DNA of 64,000 nt from contig CM000154.2 in the NCBI GenBank assembly GCA_000004695.1, forward strand, positions 4,256,001 through 4,320,000, written 5' to 3'. Source of the stretch: Dictyostelium discoideum. Taxonomy: Eukaryota. Every line of letters begins with the position of its first letter. The stretch's first letter is position 1. The translations under genes were made by a program, and so were the position numbers. The notes beneath the pieces were generated by a model. That model ran no database searches, was not told where the DNA came from, and was given only the letters and a program-made list of their open reading frames with translations. This document shows positions 1 through 12,820 of this stretch, piece by piece.

Positions 1-7
1 TTATTAA

Positions 8-53
<46 letters not shown>

Positions 54-181
54 TTGTTTTTCTTGTTGTTGTTGTTCTGGTTGTTGTTGTTGTTGTTCTG
101 GTTGTTGTTCTGTAGTTGTTGTTGTTGGTGCGGTTGTTTTTGTATTTATATTAGTAAGGTCATTTTTATTATGTGCCATCA
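1..181 (-). CDS. 5' part of an unidentified gene running off the left edge. N-terminus MMAHNKNDLTNINTKTTAPTTTTTEQQPEQQQQQPEQQQQEKQNNNN..., Gln/Thr/Asn-rich.
   Basis: Minus-strand ATG at 181-179 (second ATG at 178-176) with an open frame to position 1. An upstream in-frame stop lies near 199. Low-complexity CAA/AAT coding typical of Dictyostelium. No homology recognised. Confidence 0.3.
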
Positions 182-1236
182 TTTTTAAATTTTTAATTAG
201 TACTATTATTATTTATTGTTAATTATTTATTTATTTATTTTTTATTATTGCAAAAATTATAATTATTATTATTATTTATATTTCTTTATATTTATTTATT
301 TAAATTAATATTTTAAATTATTAAATTTTTTAAAGTTTAAATTGTTTTTTTTTTTTTCTTAAAAAAAGTTTTAAATTATTTGTTCATTTAAAAGACAATA
401 TTATTATATTTGATATATATATATATAAATTTATATAAAAAAAAAAAAAAAAAAGAAGAAAAAAAATAAAAATTATAAGGGACAAATAATTAAAATGTTA
501 TAAAAAATTGAGGTTTTTTTTTTTTTAAAAAATTTTTTTGGCGCGAAAATCTTTTTTTTTTTATTTAATTTTTATTTTTTTTATTTTTTTTTTCAATTCC
601 CCTTTTCTCGGACCAAAAGCTTCCATTTAAAAAAAATATAAAATGGATTTTGTATACAAAAAAAAAAAAAAAAAAAAAAATAAAAAAAAATAAATACATT
701 TTTAAATATTACATAATTTTTTATTATTATAATAATTATTATTTTTATTATTTTTTCAATTATCTGTTTAAAAAAAATTTTAAAATGGTTTAAAAAAAAA
801 AAAAAAAATATTTCTTGGTATGTATAAAATAAAATTTATTTTTTTCCATTTTTAATTTATTCTTTTTTTTTATAAGTTTCTTGTTTTATATACCTTTCTC
901 GAATTACCAAATAAGACATCCTTTACATTTTCATTCCAAATTAAAATATATATCTCTATCAAACTTGATAATCACTGGAATATTATTAGTTTATTTTTTT
1001 TCCATTAATGATCTAAATTTATTTTAATATGCCGCTGCCAAAGCCATTTCAAAGACTATCAAGATAAAAAAAAATTAAAAAAAAACAGTTGATCTCGATA
1101 ATCGCACTAAAAAAAAAAAAAAAATAATAAAAAAAATAATAAAAAAAAAAATAAAAATGAAAAAAATAAAAAAAAATAAAAAAATAAAAAAATCTTTTTT
1201 GTCTTTCACTGTCAGTTAGTTTAAAAACAATTTTTT

Positions 1237-1271
<35 letters not shown>

Positions 1272-1528
1272 CCATATTTTTTAAAATACTATTAAACACC
1301 AATATTCATATATAAAGTATTCATATAACTTTATTTATTGGATTTATAGTTTGTACATTATTTTTCATTTTTTCATTTTTTTTTTTTTTTTTCTCAAAAA
1401 AACCAAAATCAAAAAAAAAAAAAAAAAAATCAAAAAAAAAAAACAACAAAAAACAAAATTAAATAATTATTTGTAATATTACAACACAAACATTTTTATA
1501 TATTTATACACAACATATAAATCTTATT

Positions 1529-1562
<34 letters not shown>

Positions 1563-1565
<3 letters not shown>

Positions 1566-4500
1566 TCAATTTCATTAAAAATTAATATTGTTGGTGCAAA
1601 TACTGTTAAAACATTAAGATTTGCACCAGATATGTGTATTCAAGAATGTTGTACACATATTTTTGAAAAAACAAATGAAGGTGGACCAGATCATGGTTTG
1701 TATCAAGCTCATATTGAAGGTAAACAATCAGCAAGATGGTTAGCAATGGAAAAAACATTACAATTTTATGATATCAATTCAGATCAACAATTAGATTACA
1801 AAAAAAAACATAGACCACAAAAATTCAAATTATTAGATGGTACAATTAAAACTCAATTAGTTGATGAAAGTCAAAATGTTTCTGAAATCGTTAATTCAAT
1901 TTGTAAGAAAATGGGTATTAAAAATCCAGAAGAATATTCATTAATGAATTCAGGTAAATTATTAATTATATTTTAAAAAAAGGTTCATGATAATATAATA
2001 TAATATAATATAAATACATATTAATTTTTTTTTTTATTTTTTTTTATTTTTTTTTTTATTTTTTTTTTAAAAGCTGGTGCATGGTTAAATAATACACAAA
2101 TTTTATCAGAACAAGGTATTTCTGAAAATGACATTACAGTTTTAATGAAAAAATTCTTTTTTAATGATGCAAATATTGATAGAAATGATCCAGTTCAATT
2201 ACATCTTTTATTCGTTCAATGTAGAGATGGTATTATTGAAGGTAAATATCCAACTCAAAGAGAAGAATCATTGGCATTATCAGCACTTCAATGTCAAGTT
2301 CAATTAGGTGATTATAATCCAACAAAACATGTTCCTGGATTTTTAACGTAAGTAAAGTTTAATGACTTTTTTTTTTTTTTTTTTAAAAGAATAATTAAAT
2401 TAATTTTTTTATAATTATTAGATTAAAAGATTATTTACCATTACAATGGTTAAAATCAAAAGGTGTTGAAAAGGATATTTTTAAAGAACATAAGAAATTA
2501 GTATCAATGACAGAAGTTAATGCAAAGTATAGATATGTACAATTGTGTCGTTCATTAAAGACTTATGGTATGACATCATTTGATGTAAAGATTAGAGAAT
2601 ATGGTAAGAAGAAAATGGTTGATCATATTTTAGGTATTACAAGAGAGCAAATGTTATTGATGTTAACTGAGACTAAGGAAGTGATAATGACACATCCATT
2701 GAAACATATAAAGAGATGGGCTGCAACTGATAAGAGTTTTACTTTGGATTTTGGTGATCATGAAACTGAGTATTTGATTTTACAAACCCCAAATCCTGAA
2801 CAAATCAGTCAGTTAATCGGTGGTTACATTGAGATTATTATGAAGGCCAGAAAGGATTCATCCAAAGTGATAGAGAAGGAAGATACAGCAATGGGTGTTG
2901 AGGAGGTGATGGCTGTCAAGAAAGGCTCCGTTGCTAATAGTTCATCATACATGGGGTACGGTGCAGGTGGGGGCGGTGCCAATCAGTTGCAACCATCCCA
3001 ACAAATTCCAATCACTGATTTAAAGAGTGCTTTACGTGCAACTGATCTTTTAATTGGTGAATTGGGTGGATTTAGAAGTTCCACTGGTGCAACTCCACAG
3101 AATTTCACACGTTCATTCACTACATTAACACCACAACAATTTAAACATCAATTGATCTCTCATACAAATGCAATGGCAATTGCAGCACAAGGTTTATTCC
3201 AAGATATGACAACCCCACCACCAACTGGTGGCATTGCAGCATTCCAACAAGCTATTACCAAACGTGCACAAATCATTATGGCTGAATTGAATACAGTTGG
3301 TACTGCAGCCAAGAATGCCGGTTATTTCCCTGACATGGCAAGTTTCTCTGATGAAATCATTGGTGTAGCTACAAAATTATCAGAATCTATGGCACGTCTT
3401 CTTGCAATTGGTTCAACTATTCAAGGTACAGATTGTGATGAAAAATCACAAAAAGCAGCACAAACTGAAATTTTCAATGTACAATCATTGGTTACATTAA
3501 TGATGGCAGCATGTGATAATGAATATGTCACTGATTCAAGTAGTAAGTTACTCATTGAATGTGCAAAGAATGTTTCAGCAGCAATTGCTGATATGTTGGT
3601 AGTTGGTAATAGTAAAGTTGAATTCATCGATGATGAATTATTATTAGGTCAAATTCAAAACACATTAAAAAGCACTTCCCTCACATCGGATGAATTATTA
3701 TCAACCACTGAAAATTTAGCATCAACTTCATGTCATCCAGAATCACGTAAACAAATCACCAACATCACTCAATCAGCATTGAATCAAAGTAATGCATTGT
3801 TAACTGCATTCAAATCTGGTGAAATTCCAGAACAAGATTATAACTTGCTCAATGCTAGAGTTTCAGATATTATCGAATCTGTTAATTTAATAAACTATGC
3901 TATGGATTGTTCAGAGAGGGAATATAAAATCTCTATCACTTCTAATGGTGTTGAAGTTGGTGAGGGTGAAATTCTCGCTGGTACAAATTTAACTGAGGAA
4001 TTTGCAACCGTTGCCAATGATTTAACAAATGCTATCATGACAATGAGATCAAATTTAAAGAATCCAGACACCGTTATGGAATCCTATAAAATGGTAGCAG
4101 GTCATGCCAATCGTTTAATCACTTGTACTAAAGCAGTTGCATCACGTGCTGATACTCAATCACAACAACGTCTTTTCAATTCAACCAATGCAGTATTTGA
4201 ATCTGTAGCAAATCTTTCCAATCATTGTCGTTCCTATATTAAAAATCCAGAACAAGAAGCACACACATTCCAAATCGTAGAAACTGCTGGTCATTTACAA
4301 TTCCTCACTCAAAATATGTCAACTGATGCTGGTAAGATTGCATGTATCACAAGTTTACGTGATTATTCCAAAGAGATGATTGCTCAAGTTAGTTCATTAA
4401 TTTCAACAAGTCGTACATCCTCTCAATATTTACCAGATGCAAATGGTATCACCTTATTGAAGGGTGCAAAAGATGTATCTGATGCATTATCTAAATTAAT

Positions 4501-7500
4501 GGTTGGTATTAAAAAGGTTGTATTAGATCCAAAATCTGAAGCAACCCAAATGGAACTTTTAACATTGGCTCAAAAACAATCACTTCCACCAATGAATTTA
4601 GTTTCCACTTGTAAAAGATTTGCACCAAAGATTTCAGATCCAAATCAAAAACAAAGACTTATTTTCTCTTCAGATGCTGCCGCTCAATCTGTTCAAAAAT
4701 TAATGAAAGCTGGTGAAGCCTATAAAAGAATTTGTGGTCATATAGAAATTGAAGAAGCTTTAGAAGTATTCGATTCAACTATTGCCGATTTAGAAACAAC
4801 TGAAATTGCAATTGCTGGTGGTTTCTTAGATGCAGTTAGTGGTACAACTCGTGAAGGTGCTGCTGAATTATTAATGGTTGCAATTAAAGATTTAAATAAA
4901 GTAAACAATGAATTGGTAACTGATATTCGTGTTAATCCAGCAAGATTAGGTGATTTAGTTAAAAGTGCAACTGAATCCGCTTCATCAGTTGCCATCTCTG
5001 CTAAAACTTTAATTTGTGCTACCACTGGAAAACAAGTTCAAAAGAAATTAATGGGTATTACCAAACAATTGATGATTGATATGGAACAATTAATTCGTGC
5101 ATCTCGTTCAGTAGCATCAAATCCAAATGATGCAGCATCTGAATTACTCTTGGATGCAGCATCCAATGATGTATCAATTAGTACAGCAGCATTGGTTGGT
5201 TCAACTGCAAATGTAGATTGTAAGGAATTGGATGAAGCCTCTGCTGATATCTCAAATTTACTCTCATTGAAAATGGGTTCCCTCGAATCAATTCTATCAC
5301 AACCAACTGAAGAATTTGCTTTCTACGTTGAAGAGATTGCTTCATCAACTAAAGCATTAAATGCTGCAAGTCAACAAGTTGTTGCAATGGCACGTAATAA
5401 AAATCTTAAAGGTTTAGGAGCATCCGCTAAAATCACAGCATCAGCATTGAGTACATTGGTTAGTCATGCTCAAAATGCAATTGTATTAACAGAGAATGAA
5501 GCTACAAAGAATGCAATTTTAGCATCAACCGTTGCATTGGGTGGTCAAATCATTGGTTTATTAGATTTCTCAAAAGCTCGTATTGCAAATTACTAAGATC
5601 CAATCTATGATCAAAATTTAATCAATCAAGCAAAATCAGTAGAGGATCATTTGGTAAAGGTTGGTCGTTCATTGGGTGGTGATGGTAATAATACAATTTG
5701 TGATGAAGCTGTCGATCGTATCATTGAAGCCACTCGTTCATTGGATAAAACTATTTTACCAGATACAAGTGGTTTACAAACCAATGCACATTTAGAGATG
5801 TTACATCAACAATCTCTACTTGCAATTACCCAAGCATCAAAGAAACTTGGTTCAATTACATCTAATTTAGTAAACTCAAAGAATAACTCCGATTTGGTTG
5901 GATCTGGTTCAACTGATGCTGCTGAAGCAATCATTGAAATGATTGAAGCTGCCAAACATGTTGTACACTGCTCCATTTCAACCTCATCACCAGATATTCT
6001 CTTACCTGCTAAATCAATTTTAGATGCCTCTCAAATGCTCACAGCTAATCAAGCCGATGTAAATCATGTACTTAGTCATGCTCGTACCATTGCAGCTTGT
6101 ACTCAACAATTGTTAGGTATCACTAGAGAACGTGCTTCACAATTCAATGAACAAGATGAACAACAAGTACAAGTTCGTGATGGTATTGTTAAATCAACTC
6201 AACAATTAGCTCATGCCACCAGTAGTTTAGCACGTGCTGTTAAATCTGTAACCTCTAAAGAACCAGGTGCCAAAGCAATGATCTCTCAATCTTTGAAAGA
6301 TCTTGAATCTGCAATTAATAATCTTTTAATCACATCATCTGTACCAGCTAGTGAACGTGGTATTGGTATTGCCGATTTCAATAAACTCATGTCAACTTGT
6401 CGTTCAGTTTCAACAGCTTCATCTCAATTGATCATTTCCGCTTCTTCATGTTCACAAAAACCAAAAGATATCGAACTCTCTTCAATTCTCTCAGAGAACG
6501 CTGTATTAATGACAAATTCATTGAAAGATATCATCAAAGTAACTTCATCAATGATGCCAGGTGTAAACTTTTGTGAAGAAGCTATTGAAATCGCTCAACG
6601 TGCAATTAGTGATCTTTCAAGTGTTGCACTTTCAGTTGCAGTTGGTTCATTCGATTCATCTGCCAATAATAAAGAAGGTTTATCACATGTTGAATCTCAA
6701 GAGAGATTGGTTGATGTAACTAAAAAAATTGGTACTGGTATTAATGATCTATTGAAAGCATCAAGACAATCACCAGAAGCCATTGGTATCTCTGCCAAGG
6801 CACTCTCATTCATTGCACCATCATTGGTTAATACTACTAAACCTGCACTTGCAACTGCACCAGATGCTGATGCTCAAAATGATTTAGTCACAGAATCAAA
6901 GAATGTTGGTGACAGTATCTTGAAATTATGTCAAGCTTCATTGATTGCCTCTTCAAATCCATCCAAAGAAACCTATCAAATCATTGTTAATAAATGTGTT
7001 GACGCTTCAGAGGCAATGAGTAAATTGGTCGCTCAAATTTCATCAGGTGTTAATCTCTATAAAGAACTTGATGAATCACTCGATCGTATTCGTAAATCAG
7101 TTGTTCAAACATCTGCCAAGGATGCACCAAAAGATAGTGAAAATAGAGGTTATCAAGAATATAAAGAAGAGTTATCCAATCTTACAAAGAATCTCGCCTT
7201 ATCACTTAAAACCATTGTTGCAACTGATGGTAATAATCTTGTATCAATTTCAACTATCTCTAAAGATATCGCCAATTATATCTCTGATATCGCTCATGTT
7301 TCATCAGCAATTCTTGCAACTACAAGTGATCAAAAGATTAGAGATTCTATCATTACAAGTTCAAGACAAGTCATCGTTTCAACTGGTGATATTGTTAATC
7401 ATATTAAAGTCAATTCAACCGATAAAGCAAATTCATCACAAGCTAAAGTTAACGATAGTTATCGTGCTACCAATGATAATATAACTAGATTCCTCCAATC

Positions 7501-9238
7501 ATTGAAACAAGGTGCAATCGGTGAGATTCTCTCTGATGCCGCCATTGACCAAATTCGTAAGGTTATTTCAGATTTGGATGGCTATAGTTTGTTCGCTGCC
7601 GCTGGTCAATTAGAGAATGATCAATCATCTCAATCAACAATGAATGAAGTTACCAAACAACAACATTTGAAAAATCTTCAAAAAGATACAATCACTCAAG
7701 CTAAATTACTCATTGTTTCAAGTTCGCAATTGGTTGGTTCTTCAAGAGGTACTCAAGAACATTTGGGTTCTGCAACTACTAAAGTTGCCAATACCGTTTC
7801 ATCATTGGTTAAAACCGCAAAAGATATTGCATCAGTTTTAGCTGATACCACATCACAACAAGATATCCTCTCTGCAAGTAAAGCATTATCTATTTCATCT
7901 CAACAAATGGTTTTGGCCACTAAAGATGCTCAACGTTTCAAAAAGGATGCTACTGCATTCCGTTCACTTGGTAAATCTGCTGAAGCTGTCGCCGAAGCTG
8001 TTGGTCAATTCCTCACATCAGTTTATACCGCTATCTCTGATGCTGGTAAAGGTATTAAAGAATTGGAGAAATCAATTGTACAAGTTGCAAACTACCACGA
8101 AAAACCAGATACTGTACTTAGCAATAAAGATGCCACTGCTGAAATTTTCGCTCAATCCGCTAGAGATTTGGCTAAATCTTCAATTGAAATCGTTACATCC
8201 TACACTTCTTCTCAAGATGATCTCGTTAAATCATCACAAGCCGTTGTTTCCAACGTTCAATCATTCATTTCCAATAGTAAAGGTGTCATTGCTTTATTGG
8301 GTAACGGTAATGATGATTTGAAATCTAAAGTTTTGGAGAATGTTAAACAAACAACTGGTGATATGTTAGCCTTGTTACAATGTGTTAAAGATCAAGATAA
8401 GAATGGTTCAACAAGTATTGCTGATGCTACTCGTTCAATCTCTGATCGTGTTCATAGTGTTGTCACTTTATCAAAATCATTACCAGGTGGTCAAAACATT
8501 GTCGTAGAGGAAGATAACGTACTCGAAGATCTTGAAGCACTCGCTGAGGATGAATTATCTGCATGTGCTAGATCCATCGAAGAAGCTACCGCTAAATTAA
8601 TTGCTGCCAGACCACAATCTAAATCTAAAAATGGTAAATTGGATGCTGAAGGTGTTGCTGCAACAATCGTAGATGCTAGTAGTGCAATTGCTAAAGCTGT
8701 TGCCAAACTTGTCAATTCCGCTGCCGTCGCTCAATCAAAGAGAAGAGAAGATCAAATTGCAAGTGGTTCAGTTTATAAAGCTGATCCAACTTGGTCAAAT
8801 GGTTTAATTTCAGCCGCTAAAGGTGTAGGTGCTGCAACTCATCGTTTAGTTGAAGCTGCAATGAAATCTGCAACTGGTAAAGCTGAAGAAGAAGAACTCA
8901 TTGCAACTGCACGTTCTGTAGCCGCTGCAACTGCCTTATTAGTCTCTGCTTCTCGTGCTAAATCTGGTGATGACTATCAATCTCAAGCTGCCCATTCACA
9001 TCTTTCAACTGCAGCTAGACAAGTCGCTTCCGCTACATCTGATCTTGTAGCTGCTGCTAAAGCTGCAACAATCTTTGACGAACAACAACAAGAAGAAGAA
9101 CAAGAACAATTCAATTTCACTGGTTCAAAAGTAAAAGAATTAGAACAACAAATGAAGATTCTAAAATTAGAAAAAGAATTAGAAACTGCAAGAAGACAAA
9201 TGTTAAATTCAAGAAAACAAAATTATAATAAAAATTAA
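1563..9238 (+). CDS. talA: Talin A-type (filopodin-like) cytoskeletal protein. N-terminal FERM domain, long helical-bundle rod, C-terminal I/LWEQ actin-binding module.
   Basis: Exons 1563-1953, 2074-2347 and 2422-9238. Donors are GTAAAT at 1954 and GTAAGT at 2348; acceptors are AG at 2072-73 and 2420-21; all phases are consistent. FERM F3 motif THPLKHIKRWAATDKSFTLDFGD. The I/LWEQ module is around 8760-9060 (SVYKADPTWSNGLISAAKGVGAATHRLVEAA...). There is no villin headpiece, so this is talA-type, not talB. An in-frame TAA at 5594-5596 splits exon 3 into the two ORFs listed in the track; see findings. Confidence 0.7.
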
Positions 9239-9294
9239 AAAATAAAATAAAATAAATTTTTAAAAAAACTAAAAAATAAATAATATTTATATAA

Positions 9295-10800
9295 TTAATT
9301 TTTTATTTTTGTAAATTTTGCAATAAAGAAACCAATTGTACCAATATTTGAATCTGATGGATCAAATCTTGAAACTAATTTACATTGTTGTTCAGTCAAA
9401 CCACAATTTGGTAGACCTGGTTGAGAGATATGAGGAATTTGTGGAATTAATTTCATTTCTGGATAATTATTTAAAAGATATGAAACATTTAATTCATTTT
9501 CTTCTGGATTAATTGAACATGTTGAATAAACTAAAATACCACCTGGTTTTAATAATGAAACTGCTTGGTCAATTAATTTCTTTTGAAATTCTGATGAATT
9601 TGTTAAATCAACTAAACTACTTGATTCAATTAAACGTGGACGTGATCCAAGTCCAGAACATGGTCCATCTAATAAAACTTTATCAAATGAATTACTTTGA
9701 AATCTAATTTTATCCAATGGATCTTGTTGATTTTCTTTTGTTAATTTTGATGAATCTTTTGCTAAACATGTTACATATTTATCTAATGATAATCTTTTAC
9801 ATAAATCAATAATCTTTTTAACTTTTCCTTTATTTTTATCTAATGCAAATATTTCAGTTTTAATTTCATTATTGTTTTGATATTTTTGATTATTTTGATT
9901 ATTATTAATTTCAAATTGTTGGATTAATGATGCAATTAATGTAGTTTTACCACCTGGAGCAGCACACATATCAATAATTTTATCACCTAATTTTGGTTCT
10001 AATTGATAAACTGTATAGATTGATGGTAAATGTTGTAAAAACATTTTATCCTCTAATACTGAATTTAAAGGTGGACAAACATATAATCTTTCAGTCATTT
10101 CAATTGCAACACCAACTCTAGTTTGATGATAATCATCTCTATCCAATAAACTTATACCATTACCAATGAATGCACATTTCTCTTTGAAACAATCTTCAAA
10201 TATTTCACCTTTCGAAACTCTGCTATCAATTGTTACAAATACTGATACCATATTACCTTTTTTAATATATTTATTTGAACCTAATACACCAATTGAAAAT
10301 ATATTACTACCCCTTAATACTGCTTCACCACAAATTAAATCAACAATAATTTGTGGATAAATTGGTTTTGGTATTAATGGTCCAATTGTTTTTATAAATA
10401 TTGTATCTTTTGAAATTTGATTTTTAATTTCATCATTATTATCATTATCATTATTATTATTTTCAATATTATTTAAAATATCATTAAATGATTTAAAATT
10501 TGTAAAAATTTCTTGATTTTCTATTGATTTTTCATTGGTTTTGAAATGATTTGAAAGGTCAATTAATAATTTATCTTTATTGGTATTCATTGTATTAACT
10601 CTGATTGTTGTATATAAAAAAGTTTGAGTCATTGATTTTTGAATTCTTTCCATATGTTCTTTTCCATAATATTTAATTAAATGATTAAGTACTTCAATAT
10701 CTTTAAATTCCATTAAACATTCATTTGTATATTCATCATCTCCAATTTTCTTAAAATTCATAATTTTCATTTCATTTAAAACATGATTTAAATCTTTCAT
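9295..10800 (-). CDS. NOL1/NOP2/Sun-family RNA (cytosine-5)-methyltransferase with a PUA domain (NSUN6-like).
   Basis: Single 501-aa ORF. PUA-like segment ICGEAVLRGSNIFSIGVL. SAM-binding motif DMCAAPGGKTT. Catalytic motifs DGPCSGLG and TCS. Convergent with talin, with 56 bp between the stop codons. Confidence 0.7.
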   Translation of the reverse strand: MKDLNHVLNEMKIMNFKKIGDDEYTNECLMEFKDIEVLNHLIKYYGKEHMERIQKSMTQTFLYTTIRVNTMNTNKDKLLIDLSNHFKTNEKSIENQEIFTNFKSFNDILNNIENNNNDNDNNDEIKNQISKDTIFIKTIGPLIPKPIYPQIIVDLICGEAVLRGSNIFSIGVLGSNKYIKKGNMVSVFVTIDSRVSKGEIFEDCFKEKCAFIGNGISLLDRDDYHQTRVGVAIEMTERLYVCPPLNSVLEDKMFLQHLPSIYTVYQLEPKLGDKIIDMCAAPGGKTTLIASLIQQFEINNNQNNQKYQNNNEIKTEIFALDKNKGKVKKIIDLCKRLSLDKYVTCLAKDSSKLTKENQQDPLDKIRFQSNSFDKVLLDGPCSGLGSRPRLIESSSLVDLTNSSEFQKKLIDQAVSLLKPGGILVYSTCSINPEENELNVSYLLNNYPEMKLIPQIPHISQPGLPNCGLTEQQCKLVSRFDPSDSNIGTIGFFIAKFTKIKN

Positions 10801-11109
10801 TTTTATTTTTTATTTTTTATTTTTTATTTTTTATTTTATTTTTATTTTTATTTTTTATTTTTTTATTATTAATTTAAGGATTTAAAAAAAAAAAATTGTT
10901 TGTATCTTTAAATTTAATATTCATTAATTAAATTTAGATTATTTTTAGAAAAAAAAAAAAAAAAAAAATTAATTTCTTTTTTTTTATTTTTTTTATTTTT
11001 TTTATTTTTTTTCTCAAAACAAAAAACCGACAAAAAAAGCGAAAGACGATTTTTTTTTTTTTTTTTTTTTTTCAAAATAATTATAATTTTAGATAATAAT
11101 AAAAATAAA

Positions 11110-12820
11110 ATGGATGTACTTGTAGGTTGTTCAACTGGTATTAATAAAAGTAATGTAAACAAGATTTTTTTTTTTTTTTTTTAATTATATCTTAAGATTA
11201 TTAACTTTTTTTTTTTTTTTATAGTTTATAATATTCATAAAAAAACACCAACAGGTTTATATGGTGCATTAAATACAACATCAGAATTAAATGTAATGAC
11301 ATTTGGTTGGAATTCAGTTGAAAATAATGAAGATTATGTATTTTATGGATATTCAAATGGTATTTTAAAATATTGGAATCAAAAAGAGAAACAATTAATT
11401 GGTGAAATTGATTATGGTCAATCAATTAAAGCAATTCATCCATTGAATAATGATAAATTATTAGTAGCATTAGAGAATGGTTTAGTTGATGTTAAAACTT
11501 TAACAGCACCAATTACAACTCAATTAGCTCCAATGAATTTACCAACATTAAATAAAAAAAAGAGTCCAGCAGCAGCAGCCGCCGCCTCAACAGTAGGAAA
11601 GAATAATAAATCAAAACAAGTCATTGTTGAACCAGTTAATACTCAAAGTTTTTCATTAAATGTTGCAACTAATTTATCAGGTTTTGCAATGAATCCATCA
11701 AATGATAAATTTGCATTTGGTGGTAAAGATGTAAATTTAACCATTTGGGATCTTGAAAAACAAGTTAAAACCTATTCAGCCAAATTTAAACATGACTTTT
11801 TAAATCTTCAAGAACCAGTTTCAATCAATGTTGTAAAATACATGAATGATGATAAAATTTTAATTGGTAGTGATTTTAGAATAAAAGCTTATGATTTACG
11901 TTCAAAAACTAATAGATCTTCTTTCTTGGACGTTTCATTTTCAAAACATCCAATTCAATCAATTCAATATACAAATCAAAAAGAACAGTATGTTTTTAAA
12001 TTTAAAAAAGATATTATTAAAAAAAAAAAAAAAAAAAAAAAAGAATAATTATAATTATATAAAATATTAATATTTATTATTTTTTATTATTATTAGTTAT
12101 TTCTATGCATCAGATTCAATTGGTAAAGTATTTTGTTATGATGTTAGAACAAGTAGACAAGTTGGTAGTTTCAAAGATAGTGCTGGTAGTGTTAAAGATA
12201 TTGCAATTCATCCAACTTTACCATTATTAGCAACAGTTGGTTTAGATAGACATCTTAGAGTTTATAATTTAGATAATAGAAAAATGTTACATAAAATTTT
12301 CTTAAAACAAAGACTTTCTTGTGTATTATTCTCAAAAGAAGAACCAACAAATGAAATTGCTCAAGAAGAAGAAGAAATCTGGAAGAATTTGGAAGAAAAT
12401 AAAAATAGAATTAATAATGATGATAATGATGATAATAATGAAGGAAATGATAAAAAGAAATCAATTTCAATTAAAGTTACTGATAATATGGATTCTGATG
12501 ATGATATTGAAGATGGTGATGATAATGATGTTGAATTCCCAATGGAAGCAGATTCAGATGATTCAGATTTTGATTTAGGTAATTCTGATGATGATAATAT
12601 CTCTGTTAAAAAAGAAAATAAAGGTGATTCAGATGATTCAGATGATGACTCTGACGAAGATGAAAAACCAAAAAGAAAAACACCTGCAAAATCAAATCTC
12701 AGAAATAATAATAATAATAATAATAAAGGTAAAAATAATAAAGGTAAAAATAATAGTAGTACAAAGAAAACTAGTCAAGTTTTGAAAAAGAAATTTGCTG
12801 GTTTAAAAAAAAGAAAGTAA
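11110..12820 (+). CDS. WD40-repeat ribosome-biogenesis factor NSA1/WDR74 homolog.
   Basis: Exons 11110-11149, 11225-11987 and 12097-12820. Donors are GTAATG at 11150 and GTATGT at 11988; acceptors are at 11223-24 and 12095-96. N-terminus MDVLVGCSTGINK resembles yeast Nsa1 MRLLVSCVDSGSIK. VGLDRHLRVYNLDNRKML matches Nsa1 GGLDRYVRIFDIKTNKML. Acidic/basic tail with EEEIWKNLE. Divergently arranged with the NSUN6-like gene. Confidence 0.6.

Follow-up and report, generated by a model that had tools for sequence, protein, structure and literature searches.

Talin A of Dictyostelium discoideum strain AX2 was described as a 269-kDa protein by Kreitmeier et al. (1995). UniProt holds two entries for the protein, the full-length AX2 form P0CE95 (= AAC46586.2) and a 1,279-aa AX4 form, P0CE94 (TALA_DICDI, Talin-A/Filopodin). 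Vertebrate talin-1 (PDB 6r9t, full length; 2l7n, R5) shares its domain order with TalA, although the rod alignment between the two is weak and overall identity is only about 24%. Localisation of TalA is directed by its C-terminal I/LWEQ actin-binding domain, to the posterior actomyosin cortex (PMC6449030). When TalA is made to end after residue 940, adhesion, phagocytosis, and migration are not restored, and the protein carries no force (PMC12686525). For AX4, a 2020 paper citing dictyBase ("unpublished data," and thus second-hand) states that the strain makes a truncated talin A (PMC7377449); this was the only published description of the AX4 talA stop found in our literature searches. The change of Lys1280 to a stop in AX4 talA is already known, being recorded in UniProt (P0CE94 and P0CE95) and in dictyBase. 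Our analysis therefore teaches nothing new about the biology, and its value is practical.

We analyzed a 64,000-nucleotide stretch of D. discoideum DNA, called the window here, which is the AX4 reference talA locus. The gene lies on the forward strand in three exons: exon 1 (1563 to 1953) holds the start codon and encodes F0 and the beginning of F1; exon 2 (2074 to 2347) encodes the F1/F2 portion of the FERM head; and exon 3 (2422 to 9238) contains a TAA at 5594-5596. The two introns (1954-2073, 120 nt; 2348-2421, 74 nt) are AT-rich and have GT...AG ends. With the stop removed, the spliced translation of the window is identical to XP_635646.2/EAL62101.2 (P0128; DDB_G0290481, D. discoideum AX4), and the 1,279 residues preceding the stop are identical to P0CE94, so that this entry and the window product are the same object up to the TAA. 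These exact matches bear out the assignment of the gene to talA in a preliminary description made from the sequence alone. The RefSeq protein (2,492 aa) comes from the same locus and is a conceptual protein in which the stop codon is omitted and Y1279 is joined to D1281. Placing K at 1280 makes the window protein identical to a protein from an AX2-like genome assembly (P0121).

Searches with the full-length protein returned dictyostelid talin A orthologues at E = 0, with talin matched at E = 0 on each side of the TAA, and the 90%-identity cluster of the best match comprised 13 proteins. A word-indexed protein search with a 283-aa query across the stop (X at the stop) gave no match, whereas the full-length query gave 100% matches; the missing match is a false negative of the tool, which is unreliable for short, low-complexity-like rod queries.

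We ran Pfam on the full-length protein and converted the residue coordinates to positions in the window, where all of the domains lie on the forward strand. The N terminus is an atypical talin FERM head with F0, F1, F2, and a PTB-like F3: FERM_f0 covers residues 3-81 (E = 9e-31), RA_2/FERM_N residues 87-145, FERM_M residues 167-275 (to about 2581 in the window; E = 2e-23), and the PTB-like F3 (IRS/PTB) residues 277-362 (2585-2842; E = 1e-22). A long helical-bundle rod follows, recognized by Pfam and by a weak match to the PDB structure of talin-1 R5. Its segments include Talin_R4 (residues 869-985; 4361-4711), a Talin_IBS2B-like segment (the best of five stretches; residues 1419-1524; 6011-6328), and a TLN1-like rod segment (TLN1-like_RS; residues 1927-2097; 7535-8047). 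The C-terminal I/LWEQ (I_LWEQ) actin-binding domain is also encoded (residues 2340-2491; 8774-9229; E = 2e-59), but it lies 3' of the premature stop and is absent from the AX4 product. The region flanking the stop aligned weakly with talin-1 R5 (talin-1 residues 1078-1260; E = 0.003-0.012), and in this weak alignment K1280 falls opposite talin-1 G1177, in the loop preceding the last R5 helix.

The codon at 5594-5596 is TAA, in the context ATT GCA AAT TAC TAA GAT CCA ATC, and it is in frame with the ATG at 2507, where (5594-2507)/3 = 1029. In the spliced coding sequence it is codon 1280 and the sole stop inside the 2,493-codon talA frame; sequence and frame thus agree with the preliminary description, in which an in-frame TAA was said to interrupt talA. 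Beyond it, the same frame is open from 5597 until it reaches its natural end, a TAA at 9236-9238. The two ORFs reported there, 2507-5596 and 5651-9238, do share a frame and are parted only by the TAA: the codons DPIYDQNLINQAKSVEDH at 5597-5650 are likewise open, and the listed start at 5651 is the ORF tool's first TTG. The A+T content is 78% across the window, and by our own estimate from base frequencies stops are expected by chance about every 11 codons. Set against this expectation, open runs of 1,029 and 1,213 codons flanking one stop are not a chance outcome. Exons 1 and 2 together with positions 2422 to 5593 (the remaining FERM head, the linker, and the proximal part of the rod, stopping within the R5-like bundle) encode a product of 1,279 aa, which corrects the earlier figure of about 1250 aa by counting the exons at 1563-1953 and 2074-2347. 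The remainder of talA, from 5597 to 9238, is intact (1,213 codons plus the natural stop, encoding the distal rod and the I/LWEQ domain) and presumably untranslated in AX4.

Such a fully intact downstream frame is what one would see if the stop were bypassed in vivo, by programmed or leaky readthrough, a tiny intron, or reinitiation (e.g., at ATG 5798), with a near full-length talin A being made, and the joining of Y1279 to D1281 in XP_635646.2 has the same form. We consider bypass very improbable. The stop was absent from every other strain and species examined, all of which except AX4 had Lys (AAA or AAG), and there is thus no conserved recoding site. Termination at UAA is efficient when a G comes next (the context here is UAC UAA GAU), and eukaryotic ribosomes are not expected to reinitiate after an ORF of 1,279 codons. 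The TAA itself has no GT/AG ends, and the sole GT/AG pair that spans it would remove conserved residues. The preliminary description had reported no GT/AG signals for a micro-intron, but a GT at 5580-81 and an AG at 5596-97 are present and would bound an "intron" of 18 nt. A spliceosomal micro-intron between them was rejected as far too short; the real talA introns measure 120 and 74 nt, and the 18-nt "intron" would delete RIANYK, which is conserved coding sequence in all orthologues. A scan of the window for tRNA genes found none, which says nothing about suppressor tRNAs from other parts of the genome.

Next, we looked at which residue other talin A sequences carry at position 1280. Lysine was present in 9 of the 13 cluster members, including AX2 P0CE95; among the other four, the AX4 model skips the codon, P0CE94 ends before it, and two did not contain the search string and were left out. 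Carriers of Lys1280 are the AX2 cDNA protein (P0CE95/AAC46586.2), three other D. discoideum assemblies, D. firmibasis, two D. citrinum assemblies, one "D. cf. discoideum" assembly, and four Logan read assemblies. Codon 1280 reads AAA in the DNA of the three loci L002, L003, and L007. The lysine is also kept, within the motif NxKDPIYDQNL, in seven more distant dictyostelid TalA orthologues; its conservation is confined to dictyostelid TalA orthologues and does not extend to TalB or to non-dictyostelid talins. These results indicate that the ancestral codon is AAA (Lys1280) and that the T at 5594 replaced an A. The preliminary description had presumed that the full-length protein reads through this position, and elsewhere it does, with Lys in AX2, in other strains, and in other species. 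In D. purpureum the lysine codon is AAG. The D. purpureum talA gene model (P0002) lacks 14 conserved residues at exactly this place (L001, about 4959-5000, GL871326.1). A peculiarity shared between the two species at this site was considered and rejected: the DNA encodes RIANNKDPIYDQNL uninterrupted, and the missing residues stem from a 42-nt GT...AG intron that was annotated in error.

We then compared the window with the two loci L007 and L002. L007 (GCA_054883475.1, CM142511.1) aligns to positions 1-12238 of the window with a single substitution, A in place of the T at 5594. The only other differences are two poly-T lengths, at 552 (intergenic) and at 2367-2368 (talA intron 2), of a kind typical of homopolymer length uncertainty or variation. 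Judging from this near-identity, L007 is probably AX2-214, which was the single laboratory strain sequenced, alongside wild isolates, in the paper that generated the assemblies (PMC12745789). No talA codon other than codon 1280 differs between the window and L007. Against L002, a more diverged strain, we counted 49 synonymous and 3 nonsynonymous codon differences upstream of the stop and 54 synonymous and 6 nonsynonymous differences downstream of it. The excess of synonymous changes downstream (54 versus 6) argues that in this species the C-terminal half is functional coding sequence under purifying selection. That this half is intact in AX4 would follow from the mutation being very young, and recency, seen in the absence of any other talA codon difference from L007, accounts for the open downstream frame without bypass of the stop.

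Taken together, these comparisons lead us to place a probability of roughly four in five on a recent nonsense mutation of one base in AX4 talA (DDB_G0290481), which turned AAA (Lys1280) into the stop TAA and probably arose in the AX3/AX4 laboratory lineage. A premature stop halfway along a gene could also mark talA as a decaying pseudogene, free of selection in this lineage. Little else in the locus agrees with decay: there is one lesion only, with no frameshift or other substitution in talA relative to the K1280 strain L007, and the promoter, the introns, and the start codon are intact. A unitary pseudogene would show several lesions or relaxed constraint, and the laboratory lineage is too young for decay, so that a pseudogene is the least probable of the readings that we weighed and a recent nonsense allele fits better.

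The same single-base difference from a near-identical laboratory strain is what a base-call error in the 2005 AX4 reference would leave, in which case AX4 cells would carry AAA and make full-length talin A. Exact look-ups with the 1,029-aa ORF (2507-5596), the 1,146-aa ATG-started ORF (5798-9238), and the AX4 RefSeq model turned up no record of a separate contig from AX4 that carries the truncated ORF, and the RefSeq model skips the codon rather than annotating a truncated protein or a pseudogene, both of which would be in keeping with an error. We nevertheless judge an error unlikely. The site lies in ordinary nonrepetitive coding sequence with no homopolymer, whereas the other two differences from L007 are poly-T tracts; UniProt curators split the entry into P0CE94 (1,279 aa, AX4) and P0CE95 (full length, AX2); and a truncated protein in AX4 has been reported by dictyBase, according to PMC7377449. 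The preliminary description had left three explanations side by side: a sequencing or assembly error, a strain-specific nonsense allele, and a real truncation. Lysine elsewhere and the existence of P0CE94 favour the second together with the third, and the first is not favoured. It had also proposed a comparison with the AX4 reference; that reference turned out to be the window itself and carries the TAA, while the sense codon in other strains is AAA.

If the nonsense mutation is real, translation would end at codon 1280 and yield a talin A of 1,279 residues, with the FERM head (F0-F3) and linker followed by the rod as far as the loop before the last R5-like helix. The distal rod would be missing, as would the I/LWEQ actin-binding domain at the C terminus. 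The Pfam coordinates agree with the loss and retention of domains foreseen in the preliminary description, as a predicted consequence. The stop lies in the last exon. With no exon junction downstream of it, junction-dependent mRNA decay is unlikely, and a stable truncated protein is thus plausible. The head of such a fragment could still engage membrane or receptor partners, but there would be no C terminus to link them to actin, which leads to the expectation that AX4 is at least a strong talA hypomorph. For actin coupling, this expectation is extrapolated from the shorter 940-aa construct TalA* (PMC12686525). Like TalA*, the AX4 product would have the head and the proximal rod without the C-terminal actin-binding region. 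Unlike TalA*, it would be 339 residues longer, would retain the R4-like bundle along with most of the R5-like one, and arose spontaneously at the endogenous locus. The observation that an AX3 knockout has a phenotype has been used to argue against equating AX4 with a talin null (PMC7377449). The AX3 phenotype implies that either AX3 is free of the mutation or the fragment is still partly functional.

A further reading is that K1280* was favoured during AX3/AX4 domestication in shaken axenic culture, or that the fragment, with the head and R1-R5, has kept or gained activity, which would make AX4 a hypomorph or neomorph and not a null. Substrate adhesion and particle uptake are dispensable in shaken axenic culture, so the allele could be favoured there; the TAA is the only substitution in 12.2 kb and falls in an adhesion gene, but a single event cannot show selection. 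We regard this reading as rather doubtful. If true, it could explain some of the documented adhesion differences between AX2 and AX4.

The practical consequences of the favoured nonsense allele concern AX4 as a strain and as a reference. The reference genome comes from AX4, which is also in wide use as a "wild type." A truncated talin A would compromise the strain as a background in studies of adhesion, phagocytosis, cytokinesis, and rear retraction and would confound comparisons between AX2 and AX4. In addition, there is an annotation hazard: the stop has been silently dropped from the RefSeq AX4 protein, and proteome analyses consequently treat talin A as full length. The RefSeq/GenBank AX4 model shows full-length talin A in proteome files, contradicting the 1,279 aa of UniProt P0CE94.

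Synteny around talA is kept in L002 and L007. The neighbouring gene at 9295-10800, on the reverse strand, encodes an RsmB/NOP2-type methyltransferase (501 aa; the orthologous loci match PF01189), and from 11296 onward the forward strand encodes a WD40 beta-propeller protein.

Finally, we compared the window with the AX2 cDNA protein P0CE95 (P0131) along its whole length. The two represent the same gene and share the architecture of FERM head, rod, and I/LWEQ domain. P0CE95 has Lys at 1280 and is full length, in contrast to the stop in the AX4 window, and differs from the window at 12 other positions (217, 1096, 1120-1135, 1388-1443, and 2155), mostly in clusters of Ala-to-Arg changes (e.g., 1120-1135), together with a one-residue deletion. 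The protein from the AX2-like assembly (P0121) agrees with the window at all 12 of these positions. Since P0121 lacks them, the 12 differences are probably sequencing errors in the 1995 cDNA.
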